From an uncultured Planctomycetales bacterium (lineage in GTDB: Bacteria; Omnitrophota; Gorgyraeia; Zapsychrales; Aceulaceae), in assembly GCA_964486675.1 (NCBI GenBank), contig CAZAOD010000001.1, forward strand, positions 5,683 to 69,682: DNA of 64,000 bases, in the 5' to 3' direction. Below are positions 1 through 16,293 of this stretch, piece after piece. A program made the translations under genes and the position numbers. The notes under the pieces are model-generated. The model was given only the letters and a program-made list of their open reading frames with translations. It was not told where the DNA came from and made no database searches. How positions within the stretch are numbered: position 1 is the stretch's first letter; every line of letters begins with the position of its first letter.

Positions 1-894
1 ATTTTTTTGAATGCAGAAACAGAGATCTGGCCGAATCTTTTCATGGAATTGCGTCGACGGTCTATTCCGGTCATTCAGATCAACGGACGCCTGTCTGACA
101 AAGCATTTTCACGTTATCGACGCTTTCAGAGGTTGTTGGCGCCCGCGATCAAGGCCTTTGCTTGTTGCTGTATGCAAACAGAATTGGATGCTCAGCGCAT
201 GATGTTTTTGGGTGTCGAGACTGGGCGTGTCCATACTGTCGGGAACATGAAGTTTGATGATACGTTGCCTCCTCAGGAGCAAAAGATATCGGACTCTCAA
301 GACAGCGCTCAGATCATTACGCTGATCGCGGCCAGCACACATCCTGGAGAAGAAAAGATTGTCCTGGAGATCTTGAGAGACCTTAGAAAACAATTTTCTC
401 ATTTACGATTGTTCTTGGTCCCGCGCCATCCAGAGCGCGCAGACAGTCTTGTGTCCCTTTGTCAAAAGATGGATTTTCATGCTATTAAATTTTCTCAATT
501 ATCAGCTACCCCTTTGTCACCACAGACCATTGTCATTGTTGACACGATCGGCCAGTTACGCTCCCTTTATCGATCGGCGGATATTGTCTTTGTTGGCAAA
601 AGTCTTACCGTCAAGGGAGGGCAGAACATTATTGAGCCTGCGCTTTACGCGAAGCCGATCATCGTTGGCCCGTTCACAGAGAATTTTCGTGATATTGTCA
701 GCATCTTCATTGACCATCAAGCATTGATCCAGGTCAAAGATGAGAGCGAGCTAAAAGCGGCTATTACAAGACTTATTCAGGATCCCACCTTGCGTGTCGC
801 CTTGGGCGATAAAGCCCAGAGCGTGATCGCTTGTCATCAAGGGGCGACGGAGAAAACCTTTGGTTTCGTAAAGGCCTTTATAGGAGCCACATGA
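1..894 (+). CDS. kdtA: 3-deoxy-D-manno-octulosonic acid (Kdo) transferase WaaA/KdtA, C-terminal part (5' end lies upstream of window)
   Basis: The frame is open from nt 1. It contains the GT30 signature ETEIWPNL and a C-terminal GT-B fold, and it sits directly upstream of lpxK as in many lipid A clusters. Confidence 0.8.
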   Translation: MFLNAETEIWPNLFMELRRRSIPVIQINGRLSDKAFSRYRRFQRLLAPAIKAFACCCMQTELDAQRMMFLGVETGRVHTVGNMKFDDTLPPQEQKISDSQDSAQIITLIAASTHPGEEKIVLEILRDLRKQFSHLRLFLVPRHPERADSLVSLCQKMDFHAIKFSQLSATPLSPQTIVIVDTIGQLRSLYRSADIVFVGKSLTVKGGQNIIEPALYAKPIIVGPFTENFRDIVSIFIDHQALIQVKDESELKAAITRLIQDPTLRVALGDKAQSVIACHQGATEKTFGFVKAFIGAT

Positions 895-1952
895 TCAAAA
901 AATATCTTTCTGATCTGATCGTTCAGGACCGTTGTGACGTGATCTCTCGTTTTATAAAAGGGTGTTTGCGTGGCTTGTCGTATATTTACTTTTTGGGATC
1001 AAGGTGTATTCTTTTGTGCTATCAGACAGGGGCCTTAAGGCAACGATATCTTGCTAAGCCAACGATCAGCGTTGGGAATTTGACACTTGGAGGAACGGGA
1101 AAAACGCCATTGGTGGGTTTTTTAGCAAAGATGCTTCAGCAAAAAGGGCGGCGCCCGGCGATCTTGACCAGAGGCTACATGACCTCAAAACATTTTTCTG
1201 ATGAGGTAGCGTTGTATTGTCAGATGCTTCACGATATCCCAGTTGAACAGGGAAAGGACAGGGTTTTATCCAGTCGTAAGGTCCTGCAGGACCATCCGGA
1301 TATCAATGTTTTCTTGCTTGATGATGGGTTTCAACATTGGAAAGTCAAAAGGGACCTGGATGTCGTGACCATTGATGCAACGGATGCCTTCAGCAATGGT
1401 TTCTTAATGCCGCGTGGGTTCTTGAGAGAACCGTTAACCGCGCTTAAGCGGGCAGATGTGATCGTTCTGACAAAAGTTGATCTGGCTCCAGAAACTCTCT
1501 CTCGTGTTTATCAGCAGATCAAAGAGAATAATTTTCACGCGATCTTTGTTGAAGCCGTGTACCAGCCGATCAAGTTGATCAATCTTAAAGATCCGCAGCA
1601 ATATTATGACCCAAGCTTTCTAGAGCACAAAGATGTATGTCTTTTTTCCGCGATCGGCAATCCTAAAGCATTTAAGAAAACCGTTTATGATCTTAAGGCG
1701 AACATTCAAAAAACATTTTCATTCCTCGATCACTATGTTTATACGAAGGAAGATATTGAGCGGATGATGCTTCGTGACCGCCCAAAAAAGACAACGATCT
1801 TTGTGACGACTCAGAAAGATGCTGTTAAGCTTGAAGGGTTGCTGTCCGAGGTCCCATCTTCTGTTGACTTATTTGCATTAGCTGTAGAGATGAAAATCAT
1901 TAAGGGAGAAAAAGAGTTTGAACGCAGAATTGATTCTGTTTTATTGTGTTAA
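891..1952 (+). CDS. lpxK: tetraacyldisaccharide 4'-kinase LpxK
   Basis: P-loop GNLTLGGTGKTP plus typical LpxK conservation. The ATG at 891 overlaps the kdtA stop (ATGA). The tabulated ORF start at 831 is upstream of the likely real start. Confidence 0.85.
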   Translation: MIKKYLSDLIVQDRCDVISRFIKGCLRGLSYIYFLGSRCILLCYQTGALRQRYLAKPTISVGNLTLGGTGKTPLVGFLAKMLQQKGRRPAILTRGYMTSKHFSDEVALYCQMLHDIPVEQGKDRVLSSRKVLQDHPDINVFLLDDGFQHWKVKRDLDVVTIDATDAFSNGFLMPRGFLREPLTALKRADVIVLTKVDLAPETLSRVYQQIKENNFHAIFVEAVYQPIKLINLKDPQQYYDPSFLEHKDVCLFSAIGNPKAFKKTVYDLKANIQKTFSFLDHYVYTKEDIERMMLRDRPKKTTIFVTTQKDAVKLEGLLSEVPSSVDLFALAVEMKIIKGEKEFERRIDSVLLC

Positions 1953-3864
1953 AGTTTTCGCGGCGATTGTACAGCGTTTGCCGTTAACGGTTGCCTTGTG
2001 GTTGGGGCGCATGATCGGTCTTTTAGGATACCTTTGCGATCATCGTCACCGGTCATTGGCTTATGCCAATCTAAAGATTGCTTTCGCGCGTGAAAAAAAG
2101 ACCAGCGAGATCAAGCGTATTTTACGCAGGACATTTGAGAATTACGGACAGAACTTGATCGAGTTGTTGCGCCTTCCTGTCATTGACCCAAAAACATATA
2201 TCAAGGTCGAGGGCCGAGAGCATGTGGAGAGGGCATTGGCCCAGGGAAAAGGCCTTATCTTTCTGGCTATGCATTTTGGCAGCTGGGAACTGTGCAATTT
2301 TATTCCTCAGCTTTTTCATCATCCCTATAAAGTCCTTGTGAACCCTCAAAAGCGCTATTCTCGCCTTGATGACCTTCTTAATTCTTATCGGCAGAAAGCT
2401 GGTGCTGGCCTTCTCAATCCTGGCGTTAGCACGCGTGCGTTCATTCAGACATTAAAGGATAATGAAATGGTTGGCATGGTCGTTGATCAAGGAGGCAAGA
2501 CGGGGAATCTGGTGAAGTTTTTTGGCCGTGACGCATCTATGTCGACGGGTGCCGTCAGGATGGCGCTTAAGCTGGATGTGGCGGTTTGTTTTTGTGTCTT
2601 GATCCGCGAAAAAGGCTACCATCGTCTTATTATTAAGCCTCAGCTGGCGCTTGCCAAATCTCGGGATTTAGAGGATGGTCTTCAGCAGGGTTTGTCCGGC
2701 ATCGTTCATCTGATGGAAGAGAACATCAAGAAGCATCCCTCGGAGTATATGTGGTTTTACAAGATCTGGAAATACTCAAAAGAGTCTACGATCGTTGTGC
2801 TTAATGATCGTAAGCTTGGTCATTTACATCAATCGTTGGCTGTTGCGGGTCAGATCCAAAGAGCACTGGCTCAGCGAGCGATCCAGTCCCACCTGGAAAT
2901 CATTGATATTGAATTTAAGAGTAAGACGCGTGAAAGAGTTTTTTCTGGGATCAGCTTCGCGAGCCATCGCCGAGTTTCTCAAGGACGTCTTCGCTATCTA
3001 AAATGGTTCTTGCAAAGAAAATCCTTCTTAGAGGTTATGAGCGTTAAGGGAGATTTTGTTATTTCCTGTGGGTCGTCCACGGCAGGCGTGAATTATTTTT
3101 TATCACAAGATTATCGTGCAAAAAGCATTGCTATCCAAAAGCCTGGGATCCTTGATCTTGATCGTTTTGACCTTGTTGTTTTGCCTGAGCACGACCGAAG
3201 TGTTTTTTATGAGCGTCAAAAGAACGTCCTTTACACAAAGGTCGCTCCGAATTTGATCACTCAAGAATATATTCAGTCGCAGGGCGATCAGCTGATGATG
3301 AAATTTCCAGCGTTGCGACATCGCAAAGGCATAAGGGTCGGTGTTCTTTGGGGAGGGGAATCAAAGCACCATGCGATCCCATCACCATTAGCCAGAATGG
3401 TCATGGATCAGCTGAAAGAAGCCGTTGAATCTCTGGATGGTCAGATGTTGCTGACGACATCCCGGCGCACATCGCAAGAAACAGATGATGCGATCCGTGA
3501 GGCGTTGCGCGGATTTGATCGTTGCATCTTTTCTGTTATGCCGAATCACCATAACATCGTTGAGGCCGTAGGTGGGATTTTAGGGTTGTCGGACATCTTA
3601 GTTGTTTCTTCTGATAGCATTTCAATGGTTTCTGAGGCTATCAGTTCCGGGAAGAAAGTCATTGTTTTCAAACCAGAAAAGCGTGTCCTTGGCACATGTA
3701 AGCATGATGTCTTCGTTGAAAAGCTAAGCGTTCAAGGGCATATTCTTGTCTCTGAGGCCAAGGATATCGGGCATTTTCTTTGTCGTGTTGCAAAAGAAGG
3801 TCTTGTGACTAAGCCAGTGGACCAGCAAGAGGACATATTTAAGGTTGCTCAAGAGATCATATGA
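1918..3864 (+). CDS. fusion protein with an N-terminal LpxL/HtrB-family lipid A late acyltransferase and a C-terminal ELM1/DUF1022-like domain
   Basis: The N-terminus (~300 aa) matches the LpxL pattern (LP..LG..LG, HFGSWE, Y/MWFYK end). The C-terminal ~330 aa carry TTSRRT and SISMVSEA motifs that I recall from Mito_fiss_Elm1/DUF1022 proteins. The start is TTG at 1918 and overlaps the lpxK end; an alternative ATG is at 2011. Confidence 0.6.
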   Translation: MNAELILFYCVKVFAAIVQRLPLTVALWLGRMIGLLGYLCDHRHRSLAYANLKIAFAREKKTSEIKRILRRTFENYGQNLIELLRLPVIDPKTYIKVEGREHVERALAQGKGLIFLAMHFGSWELCNFIPQLFHHPYKVLVNPQKRYSRLDDLLNSYRQKAGAGLLNPGVSTRAFIQTLKDNEMVGMVVDQGGKTGNLVKFFGRDASMSTGAVRMALKLDVAVCFCVLIREKGYHRLIIKPQLALAKSRDLEDGLQQGLSGIVHLMEENIKKHPSEYMWFYKIWKYSKESTIVVLNDRKLGHLHQSLAVAGQIQRALAQRAIQSHLEIIDIEFKSKTRERVFSGISFASHRRVSQGRLRYLKWFLQRKSFLEVMSVKGDFVISCGSSTAGVNYFLSQDYRAKSIAIQKPGILDLDRFDLVVLPEHDRSVFYERQKNVLYTKVAPNLITQEYIQSQGDQLMMKFPALRHRKGIRVGVLWGGESKHHAIPSPLARMVMDQLKEAVESLDGQMLLTTSRRTSQETDDAIREALRGFDRCIFSVMPNHHNIVEAVGGILGLSDILVVSSDSISMVSEAISSGKKVIVFKPEKRVLGTCKHDVFVEKLSVQGHILVSEAKDIGHFLCRVAKEGLVTKPVDQQEDIFKVAQEII

Positions 3865-5966
3865 AAATCTTACAGATCCTTCCTGAACTTAATGTGGGCG
3901 GTGTTGAAACAGGCACTATTGACCTTGCGCGCTATTTGACGGAACATGGCCATGAGGCCGTTGTGGTGTCCCATGGCGGAGCCCTTGTTCCAGAGCTAAA
4001 AAGTGCTGGCGCTAAGCATTATACATTGCCAGTCCATCAGAAAAATCTTTTGACCATGTTTTGGTCCATGAAAAGACTTCAGAGGATCATCATCCAAGAA
4101 AAAGTTGATATTGTTCATGCGCGTTCGCGTGTGCCAGCGTGGGTGGCATATTTTGCCTGCCGCAAAACAGGGGTCCCATTCATTACGACATGTCATGGGT
4201 ATTATTCGAAGCATTTTTTTAGTGTTGTGATGGGATGGGCCAAGCTGATCATCGTTCCCAGTCGGGTTATCGGCCATCATATGGTTGAAGATTTTGGTGT
4301 TCCACTTGAAAGTATTCGCTGTATCCCTCGCAGTGTTGATATCCGTAAATTCAACATCCCCAGAGACGAAGATCCAAAACGTCATCCGGTCATCGCGATC
4401 GTTGGCCGTATTACCCCTTTGAAAGGGCACGAATATTTTTTAAGGGCGATGGCTCGCGTTGTTCGTCAGATGCCATACGTAAAAGTTTGGGTTATCGGTG
4501 ATGCTCCCTTGGAAAAAGAGTCTTACAAAGAAGGCTTGTTGAGCTTGACGAAGCAGTTAGGGCTTGTGAACTGTGTTGAATTTTTAGGCAACCGCAAGGA
4601 TATTCCTCAGCTCCTTTCAAGAGTAGATGTTCTTGTTCTGTCGACGGTAACGCAAGAGTCATTTGGCCGTGTCATTCTCGAAGCGCAAGCAGCGGGTGTT
4701 CCTGTTGTCGCTACGCGCGTAGGAGGGGTCGTTGATATCATCGAGGAAGGGGAAACCGGACTTTTGGTAGCCCCTAGACAGCCAGATGAGATGGCTCAGG
4801 CCATTCTTAGGATACTCAATGACACCTCGTTATCAAAAGCGATCGTTGCTAATGCCAAAAAGAAGCTTTTAGAAGAGTACACCTTAGACCACATGGCAAG
4901 TCAAACGCTGGCTGTCTATCAGGAATTATTGCAAACGGTCCATCTTTTAGTGATCAAGTTGAGCGCGATCGGAGACGCGTTACTGATCACACCATCATTG
5001 AAAGCGCTAAGGGAAAAGTTTCCTTTTGCGAGGATCTCTTGTTTGGTGGGACCATCTATCAGGGAGCTCTTGCAAAGGTGCCCTTATGTGGACGAAATCA
5101 TTGTCTATGATCCGAAAGGAAAGCATCGCGGAAAGCTTGGCCTTTGGCGGCTTGGACGCACGCTGCGCAAACATCATTTTGATAAGGTGATCGATCTTCA
5201 GAATAATCGAAAAAGTCACTTGTTAGCATTTTTGAGTTTTTGCCCTGAACGTTATGGCTATAAGAATAAGAAATGGGGATTTTTATTGTCGCGAGGCATT
5301 AAAGATGATCAGGGGATCTTACCGGCTATCCCGCACCAGTTTCGTGTCTTAAAGCAGGTTGGGATCAGCATGGAAGAAGATGTTAAGCTAGAAGTCTGGC
5401 CTTCGCCTCAGGATTACCGCTATGTTCGAGAACTTTTGGAAGGTTATTGGCTTGCAAAAGGGGTAGCGGTCGTTGGTATTAATGTTTCAGCTTCAACCCG
5501 TTGGCCAAGCAAGAATTGGCCAAAAGAGCATATTGCGAAGCTTTGCGATCTCTTGGCGGCGAAAAATATTCGTGTTGTTTTGACTGGGCTAAAAATCGAT
5601 CAACCGGCCGCTCAGGCGATCATAAAGCTTACTAAGGCAAAACCCATTGACCTCACAGGAAAGACAACAGTTCTGCAAATGGCTTCGCTTATTCAGCAAT
5701 GTTCAGCTTTTGTTGTCTCGGATTCCGCGCCTATGCATCTTGCCGCAGCAGTAAGCACGCCGTTTGTTGCCCTTTTCGGTCCGACGGATCCTTTTCGTCA
5801 TTTGCCCCCGGCAAAAAAATATAAGGTCATTGCGTTAAAGCCGCATTGTGCGCCGTGCTATCAGGGGTATTGTCCGATAAAGACACATGCGTGCATGGCC
5901 AACATTTCTCCTCAGGCCGTTTTGCAGGAGATCGAGAGTTTAATCGAGAAAAAGCAGGAAATATGA
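3861..5966 (+). CDS. two-domain glycosyltransferase with an N-terminal GT4 (GT-B, E-x7-E) domain fused to a C-terminal GT9 ADP-heptose:LPS heptosyltransferase domain
   Basis: The N-terminal half has GT4 motifs (ESFGRVILEAQAAGVPVV...GETG). The C-terminal half has the GT9 N-motif LVIKLSAIGDALLITPSL and a C-terminal DSAPMHLAAA..FGPTDP. ATG 3861 overlaps the upstream stop. Confidence 0.75.
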   Translation: MKILQILPELNVGGVETGTIDLARYLTEHGHEAVVVSHGGALVPELKSAGAKHYTLPVHQKNLLTMFWSMKRLQRIIIQEKVDIVHARSRVPAWVAYFACRKTGVPFITTCHGYYSKHFFSVVMGWAKLIIVPSRVIGHHMVEDFGVPLESIRCIPRSVDIRKFNIPRDEDPKRHPVIAIVGRITPLKGHEYFLRAMARVVRQMPYVKVWVIGDAPLEKESYKEGLLSLTKQLGLVNCVEFLGNRKDIPQLLSRVDVLVLSTVTQESFGRVILEAQAAGVPVVATRVGGVVDIIEEGETGLLVAPRQPDEMAQAILRILNDTSLSKAIVANAKKKLLEEYTLDHMASQTLAVYQELLQTVHLLVIKLSAIGDALLITPSLKALREKFPFARISCLVGPSIRELLQRCPYVDEIIVYDPKGKHRGKLGLWRLGRTLRKHHFDKVIDLQNNRKSHLLAFLSFCPERYGYKNKKWGFLLSRGIKDDQGILPAIPHQFRVLKQVGISMEEDVKLEVWPSPQDYRYVRELLEGYWLAKGVAVVGINVSASTRWPSKNWPKEHIAKLCDLLAAKNIRVVLTGLKIDQPAAQAIIKLTKAKPIDLTGKTTVLQMASLIQQCSAFVVSDSAPMHLAAAVSTPFVALFGPTDPFRHLPPAKKYKVIALKPHCAPCYQGYCPIKTHACMANISPQAVLQEIESLIEKKQEI

Positions 5967-7057
5967 ACATACTGATCTTGGCAACACATTGCAATACCGG
6001 CGGCATTACCAGCTATGTTTTGACGCTTACCAAAGGACTTGTGCAAAAAGGACACAGTGTTCATATCGTGACAAGCGGCGGCGACAGAGAGAAAGAGTGT
6101 GAGCGGGTCGGTGCGATCCATGTACGTTTAAGTATACGCACAAAATCAGAGGTCAGCTATAAAGTTTTTATGGGTATACCAGCGATTATCAAGCTTGTAA
6201 AGCAGCAACAGTGTGATGTGATCCACGCCCAGACACGCGTAACGCAGGTCATGGCGGCAATTGTTTCATTTTTTACTCGGGTCCCGTATGTAGCAACATG
6301 TCATGGGTTTTTTAAGCCTCGATTTTTTCGTCGAATTTTTCCCTGCTGGGGGAACGCGACGATTGCTATCAGCCAGCAAGTCAAAGAGCATTTGATCAAT
6401 GATTTTTCTTGCGATCCAAATAGCGTTTTTCTGCTGCCGCATGGTCTTGATGTATCCACAAAAGAATGGACGCCTCAAGAAAAAGAAGAAAGAAAGAACG
6501 TTTTGGGATTAAGATCAAAAACGATCATTGGTATTGTGGCGAGACTGTCGGATGTCAAGGGTCATGATGTGCTTATCCGCGCGATGCCGAAGGTCGTTAA
6601 GCAGGTTCCCGATGTGGATTTGGTTATTGTTGGACAGGGAAAAACAGAACCTTTTCTAAGAAAACTTGTCCATGAATTCTCACTGGAAAGCTATGTTCAT
6701 TTTTTCCCGTCAGTTAACGGCGATGATAATCTTTTGCCTTTGTTCGATGTTTTTGTCATGCCTTCGCGGCAGGAAGGGTTGGGCTTGTCTGTGATGGAGG
6801 CTCAAGCGCAAGGACTTGCCGTTGTTGCCTCCAATGTTGGCGGGATCCCAAGCCTTATCGAGAACGGAAAGACAGGGGTTTTAGTTAGTAAAGAAAACCC
6901 GGAACAGCTTGCAGACGCGATCATTGATCTTTTGAAGGACACTGATAAGCGCAAAAGGATCGCGTGCGCTGCCCAGGCTTTTGCGATCAAAAATTTTTCT
7001 CTTGATCCGATGGTTCAAGGGACTTTACAGGTGTACGCTCAGGCACGTAAACTATGA
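5963..7057 (+). CDS. GT4-family glycosyltransferase (LPS core glycosyltransferase, WaaG-like), paralogue of the N-terminal domain of the preceding gene
   Basis: MNILILATH..TGGI..; ATCHGFFKPRFF aligns with TTCHGYYSKHFF in the upstream gene. It has the EGLGLSVMEAQAQGLAVV motif and an ATGA overlap at 5963; the tabulated ORF start at 5846 is upstream of the likely real start. Confidence 0.75.
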   Translation: MNILILATHCNTGGITSYVLTLTKGLVQKGHSVHIVTSGGDREKECERVGAIHVRLSIRTKSEVSYKVFMGIPAIIKLVKQQQCDVIHAQTRVTQVMAAIVSFFTRVPYVATCHGFFKPRFFRRIFPCWGNATIAISQQVKEHLINDFSCDPNSVFLLPHGLDVSTKEWTPQEKEERKNVLGLRSKTIIGIVARLSDVKGHDVLIRAMPKVVKQVPDVDLVIVGQGKTEPFLRKLVHEFSLESYVHFFPSVNGDDNLLPLFDVFVMPSRQEGLGLSVMEAQAQGLAVVASNVGGIPSLIENGKTGVLVSKENPEQLADAIIDLLKDTDKRKRIACAAQAFAIKNFSLDPMVQGTLQVYAQARKL

Positions 7058-8070
7058 AGCGAATCCTAGTCGTGAACGTAAATTGGTTAGGAGATGTTAT
7101 TTTTTCTTCTCCTGTTTTTGCTGCTCTTCACAAGCAGTATCCTGGCGCGCGTATTTGCTGCTTGACCGTGCCGCGGGTTGCGGATGTCGCTCGGCAAATC
7201 CCTTGCGTTGATGATGTCATGATCTATGACGAAAAAGGGAAGGATCGTTTCTTGCTAGGCAAGGTCAGGCTTGTGCGTGAGATCAGAGCGCAAAATTTCG
7301 ATGGCGCATTTTTACTGCATGGCTCTTGGACAAGGGCGTTATTGGTTTTCTTAGCTGGCATTCCCGTTCGTGTCGGCTATAACATAAAAAGGCGCGGATG
7401 GCTTTTAACCCATCGTGTGAATGTTCCTCAGGGCATGATACATCGAAGCGACCATTATTTGAATGTGGTTGAATCCTTCTGCGGCCTATCGACAGTCCCG
7501 CGCACAACCAGTCTTCGGGTTTCATCTGAAGATGTTGCTGCCGCTCAAGGACAGCTGGTATCTTTAGGAGTTAAGGAACATGATTTTGTAGTCTTGATGC
7601 ATATTGGTGGCAATTGGCCCTTGAAGCGCTGGCCGATAGAGAATTTTGCGAAACTTTCTGATGCGTTGACAGAAAGAGAGAATACAAAGGTGGTGATTTG
7701 CGGCGGGGTAAGCGAACAAGTATTAAAAGAGCATATTCTCAAGGAAACAGTGCGCAAGCCGATCATCATGGTCGGACATACAAATTTTTCACAGCTTGTA
7801 GGCCTTATGAAAAGTGTCCATGTCGTTGTGTCTGCTGATTCGGGGCCGCTACATGTCGCAAGCAGCGTCGCAACTCCCGTCGTTGGGCTTTTTGGCCCAA
7901 CACACCCGGATGTCACGGGTCCGCGTGGCGGGGGGCGAGCCTCTATTCTTTATTTTCATGTGGGTTGCAATATCAAGCCTTGTTATCATGAGCAATGCCA
8001 GGATAATATTTGTATGAAAGCGATTAGCGTTAAAGACGTGGTGGAAAAGATTGAACAAGTGCGAAATTAA
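7054..8070 (+). CDS. ADP-heptose:LPS heptosyltransferase (GT9)
   Basis: MKRILVVNVNWLGDVIFSSPV N-motif and C-terminal DSGPLHVASSVATPVVGLFGPT; ATGA overlap with the upstream gene. Confidence 0.8.
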   Translation: MKRILVVNVNWLGDVIFSSPVFAALHKQYPGARICCLTVPRVADVARQIPCVDDVMIYDEKGKDRFLLGKVRLVREIRAQNFDGAFLLHGSWTRALLVFLAGIPVRVGYNIKRRGWLLTHRVNVPQGMIHRSDHYLNVVESFCGLSTVPRTTSLRVSSEDVAAAQGQLVSLGVKEHDFVVLMHIGGNWPLKRWPIENFAKLSDALTERENTKVVICGGVSEQVLKEHILKETVRKPIIMVGHTNFSQLVGLMKSVHVVVSADSGPLHVASSVATPVVGLFGPTHPDVTGPRGGGRASILYFHVGCNIKPCYHEQCQDNICMKAISVKDVVEKIEQVRN

Positions 8071-8998
8071 AAAGATCCTTATTGTAAGCCTTACGAATAT
8101 CGGGGACGTGGTCTTAACGTGTCCGGTGATCGATGCGCTCATCAATCGTTTTCCCTTAGCAGAAATTTCAGTCGTCGTTGGACCAAAAGCCCAGACATTG
8201 TTCGAGCGCAATCCTTATATCAAGAAGGTGCATGTTTTTACAAAGAAGGAGACCTTCGGTGAACTTATTTCTTTCGTTCAGCAGTTGAGACAGCAACGCT
8301 TTGACGCGGTCATTGATCTGCGCAACACAGCGTTAGGGTATTTCTTGGGAGCCCCATTTCATACTTCTGTTTTTGCGTGTATTGATCCTTACCTGCATAA
8401 GCGTGACCAGCATTGGCAGAGGTTGCAAAGTCTTTTTTCTGATGTGGAGCGCACAAAAAAACGTTATGCGATCTTTATTGATGAAACGATAAGAAAGAAG
8501 TCTGAGAATATTTTACGTCAGACCTTGGAGTATGGTAAAGGATATTGCGTGATCGCCGCTGGCTCTGCAGACCGAAAAAAGCGATGGACCGCAGATGGTT
8601 TTGTTTCTGTCTGTCAAGCGTTGGTCCAAACATATCGTATGCCTGTATTCTTTGTTGGAGACATCCTTGATTACGAAGGAGCAGAAAACATTATCAAAAA
8701 GGTCTCACAAGGGGCTGTTAATCTTTGTGGCAAGCTTTCCTTGTTGGAAACAACATGGGTTTTGCGTAATAGCCGTCTTTTGCTTTGTAACGATAGCGCG
8801 GCTATGCATCTTGCCAGCTATTTTGATGTCCCGACTGTCGCTTTGTTCGGGCCCACGGACCCGCGCAAATATGGTCCTTGGGGTGAGCGCAGCTGTTTTG
8901 TCCGAGCAAAGATGATCAATGAAGCTGGCGAAGGTCTTATGACCACTATCGACCCGCAAGAAGTTTTGGATCGCATGAAAGAGCTGATAGTTTTATGA
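8051..8998 (+). CDS. ADP-heptose:LPS heptosyltransferase (GT9), second tandem copy
   Basis: KKILIVSLTNIGDVVLTCPV and DSAAMHLASYFDVPTVALFGPTDP. The start is TTG at 8051, so the exact start is uncertain. Confidence 0.7.
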   Translation: MNKCEIKKILIVSLTNIGDVVLTCPVIDALINRFPLAEISVVVGPKAQTLFERNPYIKKVHVFTKKETFGELISFVQQLRQQRFDAVIDLRNTALGYFLGAPFHTSVFACIDPYLHKRDQHWQRLQSLFSDVERTKKRYAIFIDETIRKKSENILRQTLEYGKGYCVIAAGSADRKKRWTADGFVSVCQALVQTYRMPVFFVGDILDYEGAENIIKKVSQGAVNLCGKLSLLETTWVLRNSRLLLCNDSAAMHLASYFDVPTVALFGPTDPRKYGPWGERSCFVRAKMINEAGEGLMTTIDPQEVLDRMKELIVL

Positions 8999-10083
8999 AA
9001 CAACGATATTTTAAGAATATTCTTGTTGTAAGAACTGACCGGATTGGTGATGTCGTCTTGACAACACCCGTTTTGGAGGCTCTGCGCAAGGCATATCCTT
9101 CGGCCAGGATTTCCATCATGGTGACATCCGCAACCAAGGACGTGGTAGAAGGTAATCCTTTTATCGATGAAGTGATTTCTTATGACAAGAGAGGTAAAGA
9201 CAAGGGATTTCTTGGATTTTGGCGGTTTATTCGTTTTCTAAAGAGCAAAAAATTTGATCTCGCGATCAATTATCACTTGAAGAACAGAACTAATTTTATG
9301 CTGTTCCATGCGGGGATCCCAAACCGGATCGGTTTTGCAAATGACAAGTTCGGTTTTTTGCTGACGGAGAGCTATCCAGATCCTCGAACGGATGGGACTA
9401 AGCATGAAGCGGAATATTGCTTGGACTTGCTGCGAAATATTGGCGTTGATCACCAAGGATTCCAGGTTCATGTTCCGATCCACCGCGCCTCAGAAGTGTG
9501 GGTTGCAAAACTTTTTGCTGAAAATCATATCAATCCTGATGACCGGCTTATCGCGATCCATCCTGGGGCCAGCTGTCTTTCGAAACGTTGGCCTCCGCAG
9601 CGTTTCGCGGAAGTTGCCGATATTCTGGAAAAGGAATATCAGGCAAAGATTATCGTAATAGGCTCTGGCGATAATCAACTTGTCGCTCGGGAGGTTTTGT
9701 TGTCTATGAAGCAATCTGTTGTGGATATGACGGGACGAACGACTATAAGTCATTTGATCAGCCTTTTGAAAAGATGCGCCTTGCTGATCTCGAACGATTC
9801 TGGGCCTGTTCATTTGGCTGTTGGCGTTCAGACACCTGTGGTTTCGATTTTTGGCCGCAATCAAGCAGGCTTATCGGCTACTCGCTGGAAACCCTTAGGC
9901 GAGTTAGACATTGCTTTGCATCATGATATTGGATGCAAGGTTTGTTTAGCCCATAACTGTGATCGCCATTTTCAATGCTTGCGATCGATCACGGTAGACC
10001 ATGTGGTAGAGGCCGCGCGGACGATTTTAAAGAAGAAAATATCGAAAAAAGATGAAAAAGACGATAATATTGTTAACCCCTGA
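8995..10083 (+). CDS. ADP-heptose:LPS heptosyltransferase (GT9), third tandem copy
   Basis: NILVVRTDRIGDVVLTTPVL and DSGPVHLAVGVQTPVVSIFG; ATGA overlap at 8995. Confidence 0.8.
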   Translation: MKQRYFKNILVVRTDRIGDVVLTTPVLEALRKAYPSARISIMVTSATKDVVEGNPFIDEVISYDKRGKDKGFLGFWRFIRFLKSKKFDLAINYHLKNRTNFMLFHAGIPNRIGFANDKFGFLLTESYPDPRTDGTKHEAEYCLDLLRNIGVDHQGFQVHVPIHRASEVWVAKLFAENHINPDDRLIAIHPGASCLSKRWPPQRFAEVADILEKEYQAKIIVIGSGDNQLVAREVLLSMKQSVVDMTGRTTISHLISLLKRCALLISNDSGPVHLAVGVQTPVVSIFGRNQAGLSATRWKPLGELDIALHHDIGCKVCLAHNCDRHFQCLRSITVDHVVEAARTILKKKISKKDEKDDNIVNP

Positions 10084-10099
10084 ACATGCGAGGTAATTC

Positions 10100-10456
10100 A
10101 TGGCAGAGAGATTCGATCAGCGTGAGTTTGTCCGTGTCCCAGATTGTTCCGATGTTGTCTATACGCCTATTTCGTCAGGCAAAAAGACAAAAAGCGAGAT
10201 CAAAGATATCAGCCAGGCAGGGATCTGCTTTATCTCAGAAGAAAAGCTTGAACCCGGAGCCACTATCGATCTGACGCTCACCTTGGAAAAGATCGGATTT
10301 TCTTTTGTCGCGCAGGGGGTCGTGAGATGGGTCAATGAAGTTGTGAAGAATAGGCGCTACGAGGTCGGTATCAAGTTCGTTGATCTTCCCGATCAAGATA
10401 TACGTCGTTTGCTTAATTATATGAATTCCATGAAAAAGTTTGATAGTTATCGGTAA
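10100..10456 (+). CDS. PilZ-domain c-di-GMP-binding protein (stand-alone, 118 aa)
   Basis: An N-terminal R..EFVR (RxxxR-like) and a DISQAGICF (DxSxxG) motif pair, preceded by a GAGGT ribosome-binding site. Confidence 0.65.
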   Translation: MAERFDQREFVRVPDCSDVVYTPISSGKKTKSEIKDISQAGICFISEEKLEPGATIDLTLTLEKIGFSFVAQGVVRWVNEVVKNRRYEVGIKFVDLPDQDIRRLLNYMNSMKKFDSYR

Positions 10457-10507
10457 GATGTTCAGCGCCCTGCCTTTTTTGGCTGCATTTTCTAGAGATT
10501 TATTCGT

Positions 10508-10536
10508 TTGACGCTCTTTTTAAACTATGCTAAAAT
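10508..10536 (+). promoter_or_regulatory. sigma70-type promoter TTGACG-17-TAAAAT with an extended -10 (TGc)
   Basis: It lies in the 147-bp gap between the PilZ gene and the heptose kinase gene. The -35 box is at 10508-10513 and the -10 box at 10531-10536, with TG at 10528-10529. Confidence 0.45.
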
Positions 10537-10603
10537 CGGCTCTTTAGTTGAGTCTTAAGAGAGCAAATTTGTCCTCCTTGCCGTATTAATACTTATAATA
10601 ATT

Positions 10604-11632
10604 ATGATCAATTTTCCAACACATATCATTTCTCGCTTCCGCGGAAAGAAGATCTTGGTCATCGGTGACATTATTTTGGACCAATATATCCATGGCGCCG
10701 TTGAAAGGATCTCTCCGGAAGCGCCTGTACCTGTTGTGCTGCAGGAGGGAGAGGCGCGCTTTACCCCAGGCGGCGCCGCCAATGTGGCCAACAATTTGAG
10801 CAGTTTAGGCGCGCGTGTTGTTCTCTCTGGTCAAGTAGGAGACGATCTAGAGGCGAGGATCCTGTATCGGGAGTTTAAAAAGCGCTGCGTTGGCACGGCG
10901 GGATTGATCAAAGATCTTAATGGCATGACGTCTTTAAAGACTCGCATCATTGCTCAGCACCAACAGGTGGTCCGTGTTGATCGAGAAAATGGGTCTGGCG
11001 TAAGCCCCGAAGCGAGTCAAAAGATCCTCGCGTTCATTGAGAAGAATTTCCATAAGTTCGACGCGATCATTTTGTCAGATTACGGTAAAGGTGTTATCAC
11101 AAGGGACCTTGTCCGTCGAGTCTGCGCACTAAAGCGCCGGCACCATACGATCGTTACTGTTGATCCTAAGGTGGAGCATTTTAACTACTATCACCAGGCC
11201 ACGTGCATAACGCCAAATCGAAAAGAGACTGAAAACGCGATCCGTAATATTATCATCACGCATGAAAAAGGGCGTCAGCTCAAGATCAGGAACGACAAGC
11301 TAAAGACCATCAAAGATGTTCGTTTGGCTGGACAAGAAATATTGAATTATTTGAATCTGGAATCTTTGCTTGTGACCTTGGGTGAGCAAGGGATGTGTCT
11401 TTTCCAGAAAGGCCAAGAGCCTTTTTTAATAGCCACAAAAGCTAAAGAAGTTTTTGATGTTACAGGCGCAGGGGATACGGTTATTTCTGTTTTTACGTTG
11501 AGCCTAGCAGCGGGGGCTTCTAAGCAGGAGGCCGCGATCCTTGCGAACTATGCCGCAGGCGTTGTTGTCGGGAAAACCGGAGCTGTCGCGGTGACTCCTA
11601 ATGAAATTTTAGCTGCTATGACAGAGAGTTAA
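10604..11632 (+). CDS. hldA: D-glycero-beta-D-manno-heptose-7-phosphate kinase (HldE domain I only; HldA-like monofunctional kinase)
   Basis: ILVIGDIILDQYIHG..ISPEAPVPVV..PGGAANVANN and a C-terminal DVTGAGDT pfkB-family motif. At 342 aa there is no adenylyltransferase domain. Confidence 0.8.
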   Translation: MINFPTHIISRFRGKKILVIGDIILDQYIHGAVERISPEAPVPVVLQEGEARFTPGGAANVANNLSSLGARVVLSGQVGDDLEARILYREFKKRCVGTAGLIKDLNGMTSLKTRIIAQHQQVVRVDRENGSGVSPEASQKILAFIEKNFHKFDAIILSDYGKGVITRDLVRRVCALKRRHHTIVTVDPKVEHFNYYHQATCITPNRKETENAIRNIIITHEKGRQLKIRNDKLKTIKDVRLAGQEILNYLNLESLLVTLGEQGMCLFQKGQEPFLIATKAKEVFDVTGAGDTVISVFTLSLAAGASKQEAAILANYAAGVVVGKTGAVAVTPNEILAAMTES

Positions 11633-11636
11633 TACT

Positions 11637-12377
11637 ATGAAAGCTATTGGTGTTATTCCTGCTCGATACGGTTCTACGCGTCTTAAGGCAAAAGTGTTAG
11701 CGGATATTCTCGGAAAGCCTTTGATCCAGCATGTGTGGGAGGGGGCAAGGCGTTCGCAGTACCTTGATGATCTTTATGTGGCAACGGATGATGAACGTGT
11801 TAAGGTTGTCTGTGAAGGGTTTGGAGCAAAGGTTGTAATGACAAGCCCTGATTGTCAGTCGGGATCTGATCGCGTCATTGATGTGATCAAAGACATGAGC
11901 GCCGCGCATGTTCTTAATATCCAAGGTGATGAACCTTTGATCGATGGCAGCATTATCGATGGGCTTATTGCGGCCTTAAGAAAAGAAAAAGAGGCGCCTG
12001 TCGCGACGGTTATTAAACCTATCGTCAAAGAAGAAGACTTGAGTAATCCTAACATCGTTAAGGTTGTTGTTGACAGAAAAGGATATGCGCTTTATTTTTC
12101 GCGTTCTACGATCCCTTTTAACCGAGAGGCGGCAAGCTTTTCGACTCTTAAATATTACAAGCATTTAGGGATCTATGCGTATCAAAAAAGTTTTTTAATG
12201 AGCTTTAAGAAATTGCCTCGCTCGATTCTTGAGGAGACCGAAAAGCTGGAGCAGTTGCGCGTCCTGGAGGCGGGATACAAGATCAAGACAACGCTGACAG
12301 ACAGAGAGACGTTGAGTGTTGATACGGCTGAAGACCTGGACAAGGTCAAGGCGTTTTTGCGAAAGGTTAAGAAATGA
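11637..12377 (+). CDS. kdsB: 3-deoxy-manno-octulosonate cytidylyltransferase (CMP-Kdo synthetase)
   Basis: IGVIPARYGSTRL..GKPLI..; typical KdsB length of 246 aa. Confidence 0.85.
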   Translation: MKAIGVIPARYGSTRLKAKVLADILGKPLIQHVWEGARRSQYLDDLYVATDDERVKVVCEGFGAKVVMTSPDCQSGSDRVIDVIKDMSAAHVLNIQGDEPLIDGSIIDGLIAALRKEKEAPVATVIKPIVKEEDLSNPNIVKVVVDRKGYALYFSRSTIPFNREAASFSTLKYYKHLGIYAYQKSFLMSFKKLPRSILEETEKLEQLRVLEAGYKIKTTLTDRETLSVDTAEDLDKVKAFLRKVKK

Positions 12378-13204
12378 GTACGATCGTTTCGACAGGAAAC
12401 ATCAAGATGGGCGGGTCGAATCCTTTTGTTTTGATCGCAGGGCCATGCGTGATCGAGGGGCGAACATTCGCGCTACGTCTTGCGAGTGATCTAAAGGCGA
12501 TCGCGCGCGAGGTAGGTGTGCCTTTTATTTTCAAGGCAAGTTATGATAAGGCCAATAGAACATCTTTGAATTCTTTCCGCGGTCCAGGGCTTTTAAAAGG
12601 GCTTGCAGTTTTGCACGATATTAAAGAACGTATTGGCGTTCCGATTCTCAGCGATGTCCACGGCGTGGATGAGGTCGCGGAGGCGGCGAATGTGCTGGAC
12701 ATTATTCAGATCCCTGCTTTTTTATGCCGTCAAACAGACCTAATTGTTGCTGCGGCTCAAACACGTAAGATCGTTAATGTCAAGAAAGGACAGTTTTTAG
12801 CTCCTTGGGATATCGGGCAGGTCATTAAAAAGATTGAGTCTCAGGGAAACAAAAAGATCCTTTTGACAGAGCGAGGCGTGACCTTTGGCTACAACAATCT
12901 TGTGAGTGATTTTCGTTCTGTTGAGATCATGAAGAGTACAGGTTATCCTGTTATTTATGACGCTACCCATAGTGTTCAGCAGCCAGGCGGCAAAGGGGAT
13001 CAATCTGGCGGCAACAGTGAATATGTGCCCTTGCTCTCGCGCTGCGCTGTTGCGGCTGGAATTTCCGCTCTCTTTCTGGAGGTCCATCCTCATCCTAAGC
13101 AAGCCTTGTCGGACGGGCCTAATTCCTTGCCTTTGTCCAAGCTCAAAGGGTTGTTGCGAGGCTTAAAACAGATCGATCGTGTTGTCAAACAACGTTTTCA
13201 TTAA
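12374..13204 (+). CDS. kdsA: 2-dehydro-3-deoxyphosphooctonate aldolase (Kdo-8-P synthase)
   Basis: FVLIAGPCVIE..FKASYDKANRTS..; ATGA overlap with kdsB. Confidence 0.85.
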   Translation: MSTIVSTGNIKMGGSNPFVLIAGPCVIEGRTFALRLASDLKAIAREVGVPFIFKASYDKANRTSLNSFRGPGLLKGLAVLHDIKERIGVPILSDVHGVDEVAEAANVLDIIQIPAFLCRQTDLIVAAAQTRKIVNVKKGQFLAPWDIGQVIKKIESQGNKKILLTERGVTFGYNNLVSDFRSVEIMKSTGYPVIYDATHSVQQPGGKGDQSGGNSEYVPLLSRCAVAAGISALFLEVHPHPKQALSDGPNSLPLSKLKGLLRGLKQIDRVVKQRFH

Positions 13205-13212
13205 AGGAAAAT

Positions 13213-14172
13213 ATGGTATTGCAAAGAGCAAAAAGTGTTATTACCGCTGAGCTTGAGGCTATTAGCCAACTAAAAGAAAGGTTAGGGTCAGAGTTCGTTG
13301 ATGCGGTCGACATGCTGGCGAAATGTAAAGGGCGGGTGATCGTTTGCGGCATGGGAAAAACAGGTCTGATCGGACGTAAGATCGCGGCCACTCTTTCTTC
13401 GACGGGAACTCCGTCTTTTTGGTTGCATTCTGCTGAAGCGCTGCATGGGGACCTTGGGCAGGTAACAAAGATCGATGTCATGATCCTGATCTCTCACAGT
13501 GGCGAAACTGATGAAACGAAAAGCTTGCTGCCGCTGCTGAAAAAGATCGGCATCAAATCGATCGCGATCACCGGCAACCCCCGTTCATCTTTAGGCCGCT
13601 ACTGTGATATTGTCTTGAATGTCGCTGTTAAAAAAGAAGGATGCCCTCTAGGCCTTGCGCCCATGGCGTCGACAACGGCCACCTTGGTGATTGGAGACGC
13701 GCTGGCGGCATGCTTGATCGATAAAAAGAATTTTAGGCGAGAAGATTTTGCTTTTTATCACCCCGGAGGATCCTTAGGCAGGAATCTTTTGCTTCGCGTC
13801 GCAGATATCATGCGCACAGGCTCTCAATATGCTAAGGTCAAGCCTTCTTCATCCGTCAAGGATGTCCTTTTCGCGATCACGAAAGCCCGCTGTGGCTCTG
13901 CGTGCGTTATCGATCCGAAGGGAAAGCTTGTGGGGATCTTTACGGATGGGGATTTACGTCGTCATTTAAAGAACGGATCCCTTTTTCTGCAGCAAAAAGT
14001 TGAAATGGTTATGACCAAAGATCCAGCAACGATCGCGCAGGATCATCTTGCCGCTGAAGCCATGTGCTTGTTGCAGCAGCGTCGTATCGATGAGGTTCCT
14101 GTCGTGGATGAAAAAGGAAAATCTGTTGGCTTGCTTGATGTTCAGGATTTATTAAAAGCGGGGATCGTCTAA
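13213..14172 (+). CDS. kdsD: arabinose-5-phosphate isomerase KdsD/GutQ (SIS plus tandem CBS domains)
   Basis: The SIS motif VIVCGMGKTG..SHSGET followed by CBS-like repeats; gene order kdsD-kdsC-lptC-lptB. Confidence 0.8.
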   Translation: MVLQRAKSVITAELEAISQLKERLGSEFVDAVDMLAKCKGRVIVCGMGKTGLIGRKIAATLSSTGTPSFWLHSAEALHGDLGQVTKIDVMILISHSGETDETKSLLPLLKKIGIKSIAITGNPRSSLGRYCDIVLNVAVKKEGCPLGLAPMASTTATLVIGDALAACLIDKKNFRREDFAFYHPGGSLGRNLLLRVADIMRTGSQYAKVKPSSSVKDVLFAITKARCGSACVIDPKGKLVGIFTDGDLRRHLKNGSLFLQQKVEMVMTKDPATIAQDHLAAEAMCLLQQRRIDEVPVVDEKGKSVGLLDVQDLLKAGIV

Positions 14173-14702
14173 TGAAGCTCAGCGCAGCGCTGAAAGCAAG
14201 AATGAAGAATATCAAGGTTTTAGCCATGGATGTTGATGGCGTGCTGACCAATGGCCAATTGATCTTTGATGGGCAAGGGCGAGAACTCAAAAGTTTTAAT
14301 GTCCAAGACGGGTTTGGTATTGTCATTCTTAAGCGTGCCGGTATCAAGACGGCGATCATCACGGCAGGCAATTCCAAGGTCGTCAAGGTCCGGGCAGATT
14401 ATCTTCATATCGATAGATTATATTCAGGTGTTTATCCCAAGATGACAGCCTACGAGCATATGCTAAAAGAATTTAAGGTTGTGGACGCTCAGGTTTGTTT
14501 TATCGGTGACGATATCACGGATTGTCAGATTCTTAAGCGTGCCGGATTGGGCATTGCTGTTCGTAATGCTGTTGCTGAGGCAAAGAGCGCTGCTGATGGG
14601 GTGACGACGCGTTGCGGCGGTGATGGAGCTGTGCGGGAAGTGATCGAGCTTTTGTTGAAAGCAAAAGGTTTGTGGACGAAGGTCGTTGCTGGCGACCTGT
14701 AG
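14172..14702 (+). CDS. kdsC: Kdo-8-phosphate phosphatase KdsC (HAD family)
   Basis: LAMDVDGVLTNG..FIGDDITD HAD motifs, 176 aa, 1-nt overlap with the kdsD stop. Confidence 0.8.
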   Translation: MKLSAALKARMKNIKVLAMDVDGVLTNGQLIFDGQGRELKSFNVQDGFGIVILKRAGIKTAIITAGNSKVVKVRADYLHIDRLYSGVYPKMTAYEHMLKEFKVVDAQVCFIGDDITDCQILKRAGLGIAVRNAVAEAKSAADGVTTRCGGDGAVREVIELLLKAKGLWTKVVAGDL

Positions 14703-14718
14703 CTTCAAGAGGTGCTTG

Positions 14719-15555
14719 ATGAAAAAGAATATCCTGTTTCTTATCATCTTTGCAAGCGGGATCTTTTTTGCCTGTCCGTTGCTGGCTCAAACTGATAGCC
14801 AGCAGATGGAAGGATTTAACTTATCCGGTTACGGGGATGGCGGTCAGAAGTCTTGGGATTTAAAAGGATCAACGGCGGATATTCAGAATAATGAAATTAA
14901 TATCACGGATGTTGACGCAAATTCTTATGGCGAAGAGGATATGAATGTCACCGCAAAGAAAGGGCGCATCGATAAGCAAAGCGGGGACATGAAGCTTCAG
15001 GAGGATGTCGTTGTAACAACCTCTGGCGGGATCAAGATGATCACGGATACTCTCAATTGGCAGAAAAAAGAAGACTTGATCACGACTGATGACAAAGTGA
15101 CCATCGTGCGAGAAAACATGATTGCCATTGGACAGGGGGCTGTTGCCCAGCCAGGCCTTAATAAAGCTAAGCTGAATGAGGATGTTTCAGTAGAGTATAA
15201 GCCTAAGGCCAATGACGCTATGGAGGGAGAAATTACCATTACCTCTGATGGCCCGATGGAGGTCGACTATGAGGGTCAAACAGCTGTTTTTCAGGACAAC
15301 GTGATCGCTGTTCAAGGTGATCGACGATTGATGGCGGATAAAATGGAGCTTTTTTTCGATTCTGAAAAAAAGCAGATCAAGCAGATGATCTGCACGGGTA
15401 ATGTGCTGATCGTTCAAGGAGAAAATACTTCTTTTTCCGATAAAGCTGTGTATGAGGCAGGAAGCAAAAAGATCAAACTTTACGGACGGCCGAAGTTGTT
15501 ACTGTATATGGATAACAAGGAAAAAAAAGATAGCCATGTACCTTCTGGAAGCTAA
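14719..15555 (+). CDS. LptC/LptA-like (OstA-fold) LPS transport protein with an N-terminal membrane anchor, apparently a compact LptC-LptA hybrid
   Basis: The N-terminal TM/signal is MKKNILFLIIFASGIFFACPLLA. The first half resembles LptC and the second half LptA (TAVFQDNVIAVQGDRRLMADKMELF..GNVLIVQGENTSFSDKAVYEAG..KLYGRPKL). It lies between kdsC and lptB, with ATG at 14719 after an AAGAGGTG ribosome-binding site. Confidence 0.6.
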   Translation: MKKNILFLIIFASGIFFACPLLAQTDSQQMEGFNLSGYGDGGQKSWDLKGSTADIQNNEINITDVDANSYGEEDMNVTAKKGRIDKQSGDMKLQEDVVVTTSGGIKMITDTLNWQKKEDLITTDDKVTIVRENMIAIGQGAVAQPGLNKAKLNEDVSVEYKPKANDAMEGEITITSDGPMEVDYEGQTAVFQDNVIAVQGDRRLMADKMELFFDSEKKQIKQMICTGNVLIVQGENTSFSDKAVYEAGSKKIKLYGRPKLLLYMDNKEKKDSHVPSGS

Positions 15556-16258: not shown

Positions 16259-16293
16259 TAATAAAGTCGTTAAACAACTGAAGGAAAGGCAAG

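Follow-up and report, generated by a model that had tools for sequence, protein, structure and literature searches.

In the waa locus of Escherichia coli, glycosyltransferases of two families, GT9 (WaaC, WaaF, WaaQ and WaaU) and GT4 (WaaG), act on lipid A carrying 3-deoxy-D-manno-oct-2-ulosonic acid (Kdo). The adjacent waaQ (GT9) and waaG (GT4) genes overlap by 4 nt. The same two families make up a gene array identified in a 64,000-nucleotide stretch of DNA (the window; positions 5,683 to 69,682 of contig CAZAOD010000001.1, assembly GCA_964486675.1), which was deposited as an uncultured Planctomycetales bacterium and is placed by GTDB in the phylum Omnitrophota. The Omnitrophota are widespread, mostly uncultivated and very small bacteria, whose cell envelope, to our knowledge, has never been analyzed chemically. 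In the window, one GT4 and one GT9 module (GT4a and GT9a) are fused in a single 701-aa polypeptide, followed by a standalone GT4 (GT4b) and three standalone GT9 enzymes (GT9b, GT9c and GT9d). The E. coli waaQ-waaG pair represents an unfused counterpart of such a GT9/GT4 combination.

Besides family membership, the Omnitrophota enzymes share with those encoded by the E. coli waa locus the same catalytic residues (D13/K192/D261 in GT9 and the EX7E motif in GT4), and three of the GT9 modules pass the cutoff of the HepII model TIGR02195. The differences concern the order GT4-GT9 within one polypeptide, the presence of four GT9 modules in the array, and the absence of the waaP and waaY kinase genes from the operon. 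Moreover, the Omnitrophota modules show no supported orthology to a particular E. coli enzyme (18-26% identity, tree unsupported).

Two complete GT-B modules in one chain, performing successive transfers on a lipid-linked glycan, are known from WbdA (GT4~GT4) of E. coli O9a. In enzymes of this type, which work in O-antigen polymerization, the joined modules belong to one family, whereas the Omnitrophota fusion combines a retaining GT4 with an inverting GT9, most probably in core assembly. Proteins with GT4~GT4 and triple GT4 architectures were also found among our database matches.

A third point of comparison is provided by Acinetobacter baumannii. In this bacterium, the ELM1-like enzyme KdoT (A1S_2903/GtrOC1) transfers a third Kdo from CMP-Kdo onto Kdo2-lipid IVA and favors the tetra-acylated substrate formed before the action of LpxL; the next enzyme of the pathway is the GT4 enzyme GnaT (LpsB), the two acting consecutively (KdoIII, then N-acetylglucosaminuronic acid, GlcNAcA) and being mutually dependent in vivo (PMC10936431, PMC12856342). 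KdoT requires an SRRT motif (R179/R180 in A. baumannii) (PMC12856342), and KdoT homologues of Rickettsia complement an A. baumannii mutant (PMC10936431, PMC12856342). The Omnitrophota locus is similar in that an SRRT-bearing ELM1 GT-B domain immediately precedes an EX7E GT4 enzyme, and in that Rickettsia, which has KdoT homologues, is also the source of the closest solved relative of GT4a. It differs in that ELM1 shares a polypeptide with LpxL and the GT4 shares one with a GT9, and the A. baumannii core contains neither heptose nor GT9 enzymes.

Among solved structures, the best relative of GT4a is a structural-genomics entry from Rickettsia africae (PDB 7mi0; 31% full-length identity, Foldseek template modeling (TM) score of 0.84 on the target). 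It shares with GT4a the motifs GGVE(T/R)GT, VDIVH(A/T)RSR(V/A)PAW and E(S/A)FGR, but its family is unfused (about 385-398 aa) and occurs in another genomic context. For all four GT9 modules the best solved relative is a GT9 of Veillonella parvula (PDB 3tov; 81-145 bits, with 144.9 bits for GT9d), and the next is E. coli WaaF (PDB 1psw; 42-110 bits). Both are single-module proteins, and WaaF lacks the C-terminal Cys4 motif of GT9a and GT9b described below.

A glycosyltransferase operon conserved across Omnitrophota

Our analysis indicates that the region is most probably the glycosyltransferase core of an operon for the lipid A-core oligosaccharide that is ancestral in the phylum Omnitrophota and has been inherited vertically. 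An earlier reading of this DNA, made from the sequence only, had described an array of six glycosyltransferase modules (four GT9, two GT4) within six kilobases and assigned them to the lipopolysaccharide (LPS) core. Pfam bore out all six modules within 6,223 bp (3861-10083). The four GT9 modules exceed the PF01075 cutoff of 22 bits (scores in Table 1), and GT4a and GT4b both consist of a GT4 N-terminal domain and a GT1-type C-terminal domain with the EX7E motif, which places them in family GT4. The LPS-core assignment also holds, because the array lies between waaA/lpxK/lpxL on one side and hldA/kdsB/kdsA/kdsD/kdsC/lpt genes on the other. The true start of the array is at position 1918, where another conserved fusion, LpxL~ELM1, is encoded, which the sequence-only reading had missed.

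The fusion of GT4a and GT9a, likewise proposed in that reading, was confirmed by Pfam matches to both complete domains. PF13439 covers residues 12-162 (105.6 bits), PF00534 residues 170-334 (133 bits) and PF01075 residues 429-674 (131.5 bits), and the GT9 domain is thus present in the C-terminal half of the protein. An AlphaFold2 model, built on a 21-sequence alignment, had a mean predicted local distance difference test (pLDDT) score of 88.6 and a predicted TM (pTM) score of 0.80. In this model the final GT4 helix (residues 342-358) continues directly into the first GT9 strand (361-365), and the two modules are therefore joined without a linker. The junction falls where the standalone GT4b ends and the standalone GT9 enzymes begin, and its residues are conserved in the 21-sequence alignment. 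The 701-aa protein is a complete retaining-type GT4 GT-B module followed by a complete GT9 GT-B module in one continuous chain. Searching the PDB with Foldseek retrieved no chain spanning both modules (best TM score on the query, 0.46).

The distribution of the fusion was examined in a genome scan with one genome per species, in which 463 genomes contained a relative. The locus counts given here refer to the best 80 fetched loci (54-96% identity), in which genes were labeled by open reading frame (ORF) calling and BLAST. The fused protein was full-length in all 80 species loci, which derive, where named, from Omnitrophota metagenome-assembled genomes (MAGs). Some of the 80 records carry the submitter label 'Planctomycetales' or 'Gammaproteobacteria', and the gene order in these is identical. 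A protein search retrieved at least 120 full-length homologues of ~700 aa (57-79% identity), all of the named ones being from Omnitrophota MAGs. An HMMER search covering 1.84 billion cluster representatives yielded ~45 representatives of 50%-identity clusters in which the complete fusion matched as one uninterrupted stretch, ranging from 50% down to 26% identity; many junction-spanning fragments were also among the matches.

Wherever the contig allows, the gene order is waaA-lpxK-LpxL~ELM1-GT4a~GT9a-GT4b-GT9b-GT9c-GT9d-hldA-kdsB-kdsA-kdsD-kdsC, and in most loci hldA lies directly 3' of GT9d. Two distant fused representatives were examined (26% and 35% identity), and both were found within the same operon. 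For the former, whose contig reaches further upstream, the operon is preceded by aroK-dprA-topA-xerC, as in L001, a close relative of the window. Both fusions, GT4~GT9 and LpxL~ELM1, are thus kept together with the gene order from 96% to 26% protein identity. This operon architecture is genuine, ancient and strongly conserved, and is built of known families (GT30, LpxK, LpxL, ELM1/KdoT, GT4 and GT9).

NCBI already records the 701-aa protein of the window, and a protein belonging to the same 90%-identity cluster carries the name 'lipopolysaccharide heptosyltransferase II [Candidatus Omnitrophota bacterium]'. The fused protein is present in databases under a half-correct automatic name: annotation as either 'heptosyltransferase II' or 'PelF' hides one half of it. 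A literature search found no paper on a GT4-GT9 fusion or on the LPS of Omnitrophota.

Catalytic residues and origin of the modules

In E. coli WaaC, mutagenesis has demonstrated the importance of D13, the catalytic base, and of K192 and D261, which belong to the ADP-heptose site (PMC5713226). An alignment with this enzyme identified the equivalent residues in 18/18 sampled members of each GT9 orthogroup, the only deviation being the replacement of K by R in three GT9d sequences. In GT9a they correspond to D372, K551 and D621, which are invariant in the 21-sequence fusion alignment, as are E266 and E274 of the EX7E motif. The latter was found in 79/80 GT4a and in 73/74 GT4b sequences (a GT4b orthologue was identified in 74 loci). 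Judging from these alignments, every module of the window retains the catalytic residues of its family, with no sign of a degenerate or purely structural module.

A Cys4 motif (e.g., CAPCYQGYCPIKTHAC) was found near the C-terminus of GT9a (residues 663-678; window 5847-5894), and also in GT9b (about 7990-8040) and GT9d (about 9950-10000). It is present in 80/80 GT9a and 70/70 GT9b sequences, but in only 11/60 GT9d and 4/62 GT9c sequences; E. coli WaaF and WaaC lack it. The motif may constitute a structural metal site; the pLDDT of the fusion model is lower in this region.

The fusion most likely arose when one base was altered in a stop/start overlap of the ATGA type, which would have joined two adjacent, translationally coupled genes. 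A junction located exactly between the end of a standalone GT4 and the start of a standalone GT9 is what such a single-base merger would give. A search for the ancestral state, with unfused adjacent GT4a and GT9a genes, found none, and the standalone relatives detected (P0322, P0328 and P0331) lie outside LPS operons. The same overlaps mean that in a MAG-derived sequence a single indel could fuse neighboring genes, and the 701-aa ORF might then be a frameshift or assembly artifact, a concern that the sequence-only reading had itself raised. There is next to no chance of this. An artifact is excluded because the same fusion with the same junction recurs in each of the 80 independent loci, one per species, and also in at least 120 protein clusters and the ~45 representatives of 50%-identity clusters, originating from different assemblers and projects; in addition, the model is confident across the conserved junction.

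Further merged ORFs were observed in individual genomes. In one Omnitrophota MAG (L035), waaA~lpxK (811 aa, 5584-8019) and GT9c~GT9d (678 aa, 14662-16698) are single ORFs. Another Omnitrophota MAG encodes a GT9~GT9 protein of 685 aa (P0347), and P0288 is a GT4~GT9~GT9 protein of 1081 aa. These cases represent either recurrent fusion within the operon or indel errors in the MAGs.

The two GT4 modules had been regarded in the sequence-only reading as clear paralogues produced by a local duplication, and the motifs quoted in its favor, TTCHGYYSKHFF and ATCHGFFKPRFF, are indeed both present in the GT4 modules. The duplication itself is not supported. GT4a and GT4b align end-to-end with 31% identity (191 bits). 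The unfused R. africae GT4 (PDB 7mi0) shows 31% identity to GT4a (177 bits) and 25% identity to GT4b (120 bits), and standalone GT4 proteins found elsewhere are 42-47% identical to GT4a, i.e., closer than GT4b. In a neighbor-joining (NJ) tree including Rickettsiales GT4 enzymes, WaaG and WaaB, no node between groups was supported, and the GT4a+GT4b clade received a bootstrap value of 4/100. Mean identities in this set were 33% for GT4a-Rickettsiales, 30% for GT4a-GT4b and 25% for GT4b-Rickettsiales, and the GT4a motifs are common to the whole Rickettsiales GT4 family. An assignment of GT4a or GT4b as WaaG was rejected; the score to E. coli WaaG was only 58.5 bits, and the GT4a alignment was partial.

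The GT9 modules were analyzed in an NJ tree (100 bootstraps) with E. coli WaaC, WaaF, WaaQ and WaaU, the phylogeny that had been proposed as a check. Four orthogroups were recovered, with bootstrap values of 84 (GT9a), 96 (GT9b), 46 (GT9c) and 95 (GT9d), and no deeper grouping was supported. Identity is 41-55% within the orthogroups and 25-29% between them. Compared with the E. coli enzymes, the GT9 modules of the window are 18-21% identical to WaaC, 23-26% to WaaF, 24-25% to WaaQ and 17-19% to WaaU.

A recent local tandem duplication as the source of GT4a/GT4b and of the GT9 genes is thus very unlikely. The genes are adjacent, GT4a and GT4b have a TCHG(F/Y) motif in common, and their alignment gave the top score among the few references compared. 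Nevertheless, GT4a and GT4b form separate orthogroups in 74-80 species, with 46-63% identity within each group; their mutual identity is just 31%, matched by that of GT4a to the Rickettsiales enzymes, and the GT9 groups are no closer to one another. A 'recent' event is already contradicted by these values. Because identity between orthogroups (25-31%, GT4 and GT9 together) is far below that within orthogroups (41-63%), all GT4 and GT9 paralogues predate the radiation of the sampled Omnitrophota. If GT4a and GT4b are products of a duplication, it would be ancient and not demonstrably local.

The LpxL~ELM1 fusion and the predicted core pathway

The gene preceding the 701-aa fusion encodes a 648-aa protein composed of an LpxL-type late acyltransferase (residues ~1-290) and an ELM1/GtrOC1 KdoT-like GT-B domain (residues ~300-610; window 2800-3864), the latter carrying the sequence 'TTSRRTSQ'. 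The PF06258 match (158.6 bits) together with the C-terminal SRRT motif identifies this domain as a KdoT/ELM1-GtrOC1 family member. A member of the 90%-identity cluster of the protein is named 'ELM1/GtrOC1 family putative glycosyltransferase' at NCBI. LpxL and ELM1 are fused in every locus holding the gene, SRRT is present in 74/75 orthologues, and in the window the gene is coupled to GT4a~GT9a by an ATGA overlap (3861). We know of no previous description of an LpxL~KdoT fusion. The retention of SRRT, the position of GT4a directly next to this gene and the origin of the closest solved GT4a relative from Rickettsia suggest that LpxL~ELM1 and GT4a may correspond to the KdoT/GnaT pair. The Rickettsiales GT4 genes of the 7mi0 family that were examined are not located next to ELM1 genes.

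The enzymes of the operon would be attached peripherally to the inner membrane on its cytoplasmic side, where they would extend Kdo-lipid A in a stepwise manner. The GT9 modules would use ADP-heptose, with the pathway kinase HldA provided by the operon, and the GT4 modules a UDP- or GDP-sugar. Both fusions would tether enzymes that act one after the other, allowing intermediates to be handed on and fixing stoichiometry, and in the unfused genes tight translational coupling would do the same job. The proposal of a partly fused enzyme assembly, made in the sequence-only reading, is reasonable in this light.

The same reading envisaged a heptose-rich inner core, which is plausible because hldA is part of the operon. 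The GT9 fold, the catalytic residues and this operon-borne heptose-7-phosphate kinase, recognized at the equivalog level (TIGR02198, 361 bits vs. a cutoff of 345), would all agree with it. The HepII model TIGR02195 (cutoff 134.6) scored 159.4 bits with GT9a, 169.8 bits with GT9b and 145.5 bits with GT9d, although a HepII identity cannot literally hold for all three. GT9c, the most divergent GT9 module, falls below every NCBIfam heptosyltransferase cutoff (103.7 bits for the HepIII model TIGR02201 and 92.4 bits for the HepI model TIGR02193), and none of the four GT9 modules passes TIGR02193. As the odd one out, GT9c is a weak candidate for the Kdo-proximal step, although this is a guess.

Several points weigh against a heptose-building, channeled core operon common to the phylum. 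Channeling by fusion is something that we infer, and the pTM score of the fusion derives from a shallow 21-sequence alignment. From the comparisons given above, the GT9 modules apparently cannot be mapped onto HepI, HepII and HepIII, and family GT9, as listed in CAZy, also holds non-heptosyl transferases. No gmhA, gmhB, hldC or hldD was found in the 64-kb window or just upstream of the operon in L001. It should also be noted that not all lineages have the complete downstream half of the array. GT9c is missing from L056, where GT9b (13160-14125) is followed by GT9d (14085-15167), and in L013 and L072 the array is lost after GT4b or GT9b (from 13.2-14.4 kb), though these 22.1-kb loci run ~8-9 kb further. 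In some lineages, the most divergent ones, a polysaccharide deacetylase gene (PF01522) is inserted between GT4b and the next GT9 (L085, 12238-13047; L086, 4350-5162). This hints at an N-acetylated core sugar that is deacetylated in the L085/L086 lineages.

It is possible, though on balance unlikely, that the array builds an LPS core that is not heptose-rich, with some GT9 modules transferring a sugar other than L,D-heptose or using non-heptose acceptors; the high number of GT9 modules would then reflect diversification of one fold and not a heptan. Consistent with this, the GT9 orthogroups are as distant from one another as from E. coli WaaF and WaaQ, with no orthology supported, GT9c lies under all heptosyltransferase cutoffs, only a single heptose-pathway gene is present in the operon, the others not being found in the 64 kb, and Pfam recognizes the GT9 domain only weakly in the 26%-identity lineage. 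On the other hand, three of the four GT9 modules exceed the TIGR02195 cutoff, all four keep the K192/D261 ADP-heptose-site residues and the base D13, and in most species hldA directly follows the GT9 genes. An activity outside lipid A-core synthesis altogether, in protein glycosylation by BAHT/TibC-like GT9 enzymes or in the formation of a capsule or another glycolipid, is highly improbable. The GT9 family does include autotransporter heptosyltransferases, and the Cys4 cluster of GT9a and GT9b loosely recalls the iron finger of TibC. However, the BAHT/TibC model TIGR04414 (cutoff 200) gave at best 18.5 bits with GT9c and 26.2 bits with GT9d, a PDB search to E=10 returned no TibC match, and in every species the genes are coupled to lpxL and embedded between waaA/lpxK and hldA/kds/lpt.

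Within the lipid A-core operon interpretation, which we favor, a more specific scheme can be drawn, in which the operon is a physically coupled assembly line for an undescribed type of inner core, combining an Acinetobacter-type Kdo3 branch with heptoses in an order set by the two fusions. WaaA would make Kdo2-lipid IVA, the LpxL-tethered ELM1/KdoT-like domain would add a third Kdo either ahead of late acylation or along with it, GnaT-like GT4a would cap this third Kdo, and GT9a, covalently joined to GT4a, would build a heptose chain on it with the other three GT9 enzymes. We consider this full scheme rather improbable.

Operon layout and significance

The first 16 kb of the window form a single row of genes on the + strand (Table 1). 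Genes of the window were defined as ORF calls on this strand, with domains assigned by Pfam and NCBIfam profile scores. The lpt genes lie 3' of the kds genes.

Table 1. Genes and modules of the lipid A-core operon in the window
Feature	Position	Strand	Remarks
waaA, 3' part (Kdo transferase, GT30)	7..894	+	First gene of the operon; truncated by window start
lpxK (lipid A 4'-kinase)	831..1952	+	ORF call; start codon uncertain; position kept in 80 loci
LpxL~ELM1 fusion, 648 aa	1918..3864	+	PF03279 152 bits; PF06258 158.6 bits
GT4a module, residues 1-360 of 701-aa fusion	3861..4940	+	PF13439, PF00534; EX7E at E266/E274; retaining GT-B
GT9a module, residues 361-701 of 701-aa fusion	4941..5966	+	PF01075 131.5 bits; D372/K551/D621
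GT4b, standalone, 364 aa from ATG	5963..7057	+	PF00534 143.5 bits; PF13439 90.9 bits
GT9b, 338 aa	7054..8070	+	PF01075 134.9 bits; Cys4 motif
GT9c, 315 aa, TTG start	8051..8998	+	PF01075 98.1 bits
GT9d, 362 aa	8995..10083	+	PF01075 111 bits
PilZ-domain gene, 118 aa	10100..10456	+	PF07238 55.7 bits; between GT9d and hldA
hldA (D-glycero-beta-D-manno-heptose-7-phosphate kinase), ADP-heptose supply route	10604..11632	+	TIGR02198 361 bits, cutoff 345
kdsB, kdsA, kdsD, kdsC (CMP-Kdo supply)	11637..14702	+	ORF calls; conserved order; Pfam labels of L086 counterparts

Two of the identifications at the upstream end draw on other loci: the full-length waaA orthologue of L001 (5769-7034) matches PF04413 at 187 bits, and the L085 counterpart of lpxK matches the LpxK family PF02606. 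All genes of the array had been described as coupled by ATGA overlaps, which is correct for the 4-nt overlaps at 3861, 5963, 7054 and 8995. It does not apply to the GT9b/GT9c junction, where the only plausible GT9c start is TTG at 8051 and the overlap with GT9b, whose TAA stop codon is at 8068-8070, amounts to 20 nt. In the GT4b frame, the longest ORF begins at TTG 5846.

The sole sizeable intergenic gap of the operon is the 147-nt region preceding hldA (10457-10603). Of the promoter-like matches on the + strand, the best one (TTGACG-17-TAAAAT with an upstream TG, 10508-10536) falls in this gap and may drive the sugar-supply genes from within the operon. In a promoter and terminator scan of positions 1-16500, counts were not above those in shuffled controls, and only this match was of note. 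The PilZ gene on the 5' side of the gap was found in only the five closest relatives (L001-L004 and L006) among the fetched loci; its product may bind c-di-GMP, and the gene may be a recent insertion into the LPS operon. In the complete Omnitrophota genome CP070780.1 (L084, 16075-17652), a GTP cyclohydrolase I gene was found to be split by an intein, with Pfam matches to PT-HINT, Intein_splicing and LAGLIDADG.

The locus described here arranges ordinary enzyme families in an unusual way and is not a new type of system, and the general picture of LPS biosynthesis is unchanged by it. For the Omnitrophota, the operon provides a compact and conserved genetic blueprint of the lipid A-core pathway, with two natural enzyme fusions, LpxL~KdoT-like and GT4~GT9. 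The LpxL~ELM1 fusion would carry the newly characterized KdoT family into another phylum and physically ties this family to late acylation, which bears on the preference of KdoT for a tetra-acylated substrate. Since no solved structure covers a retaining/inverting GT-B pair in one chain, the GT4~GT9 protein could reveal the membrane arrangement of glycosyltransferases that catalyze successive steps of core synthesis.

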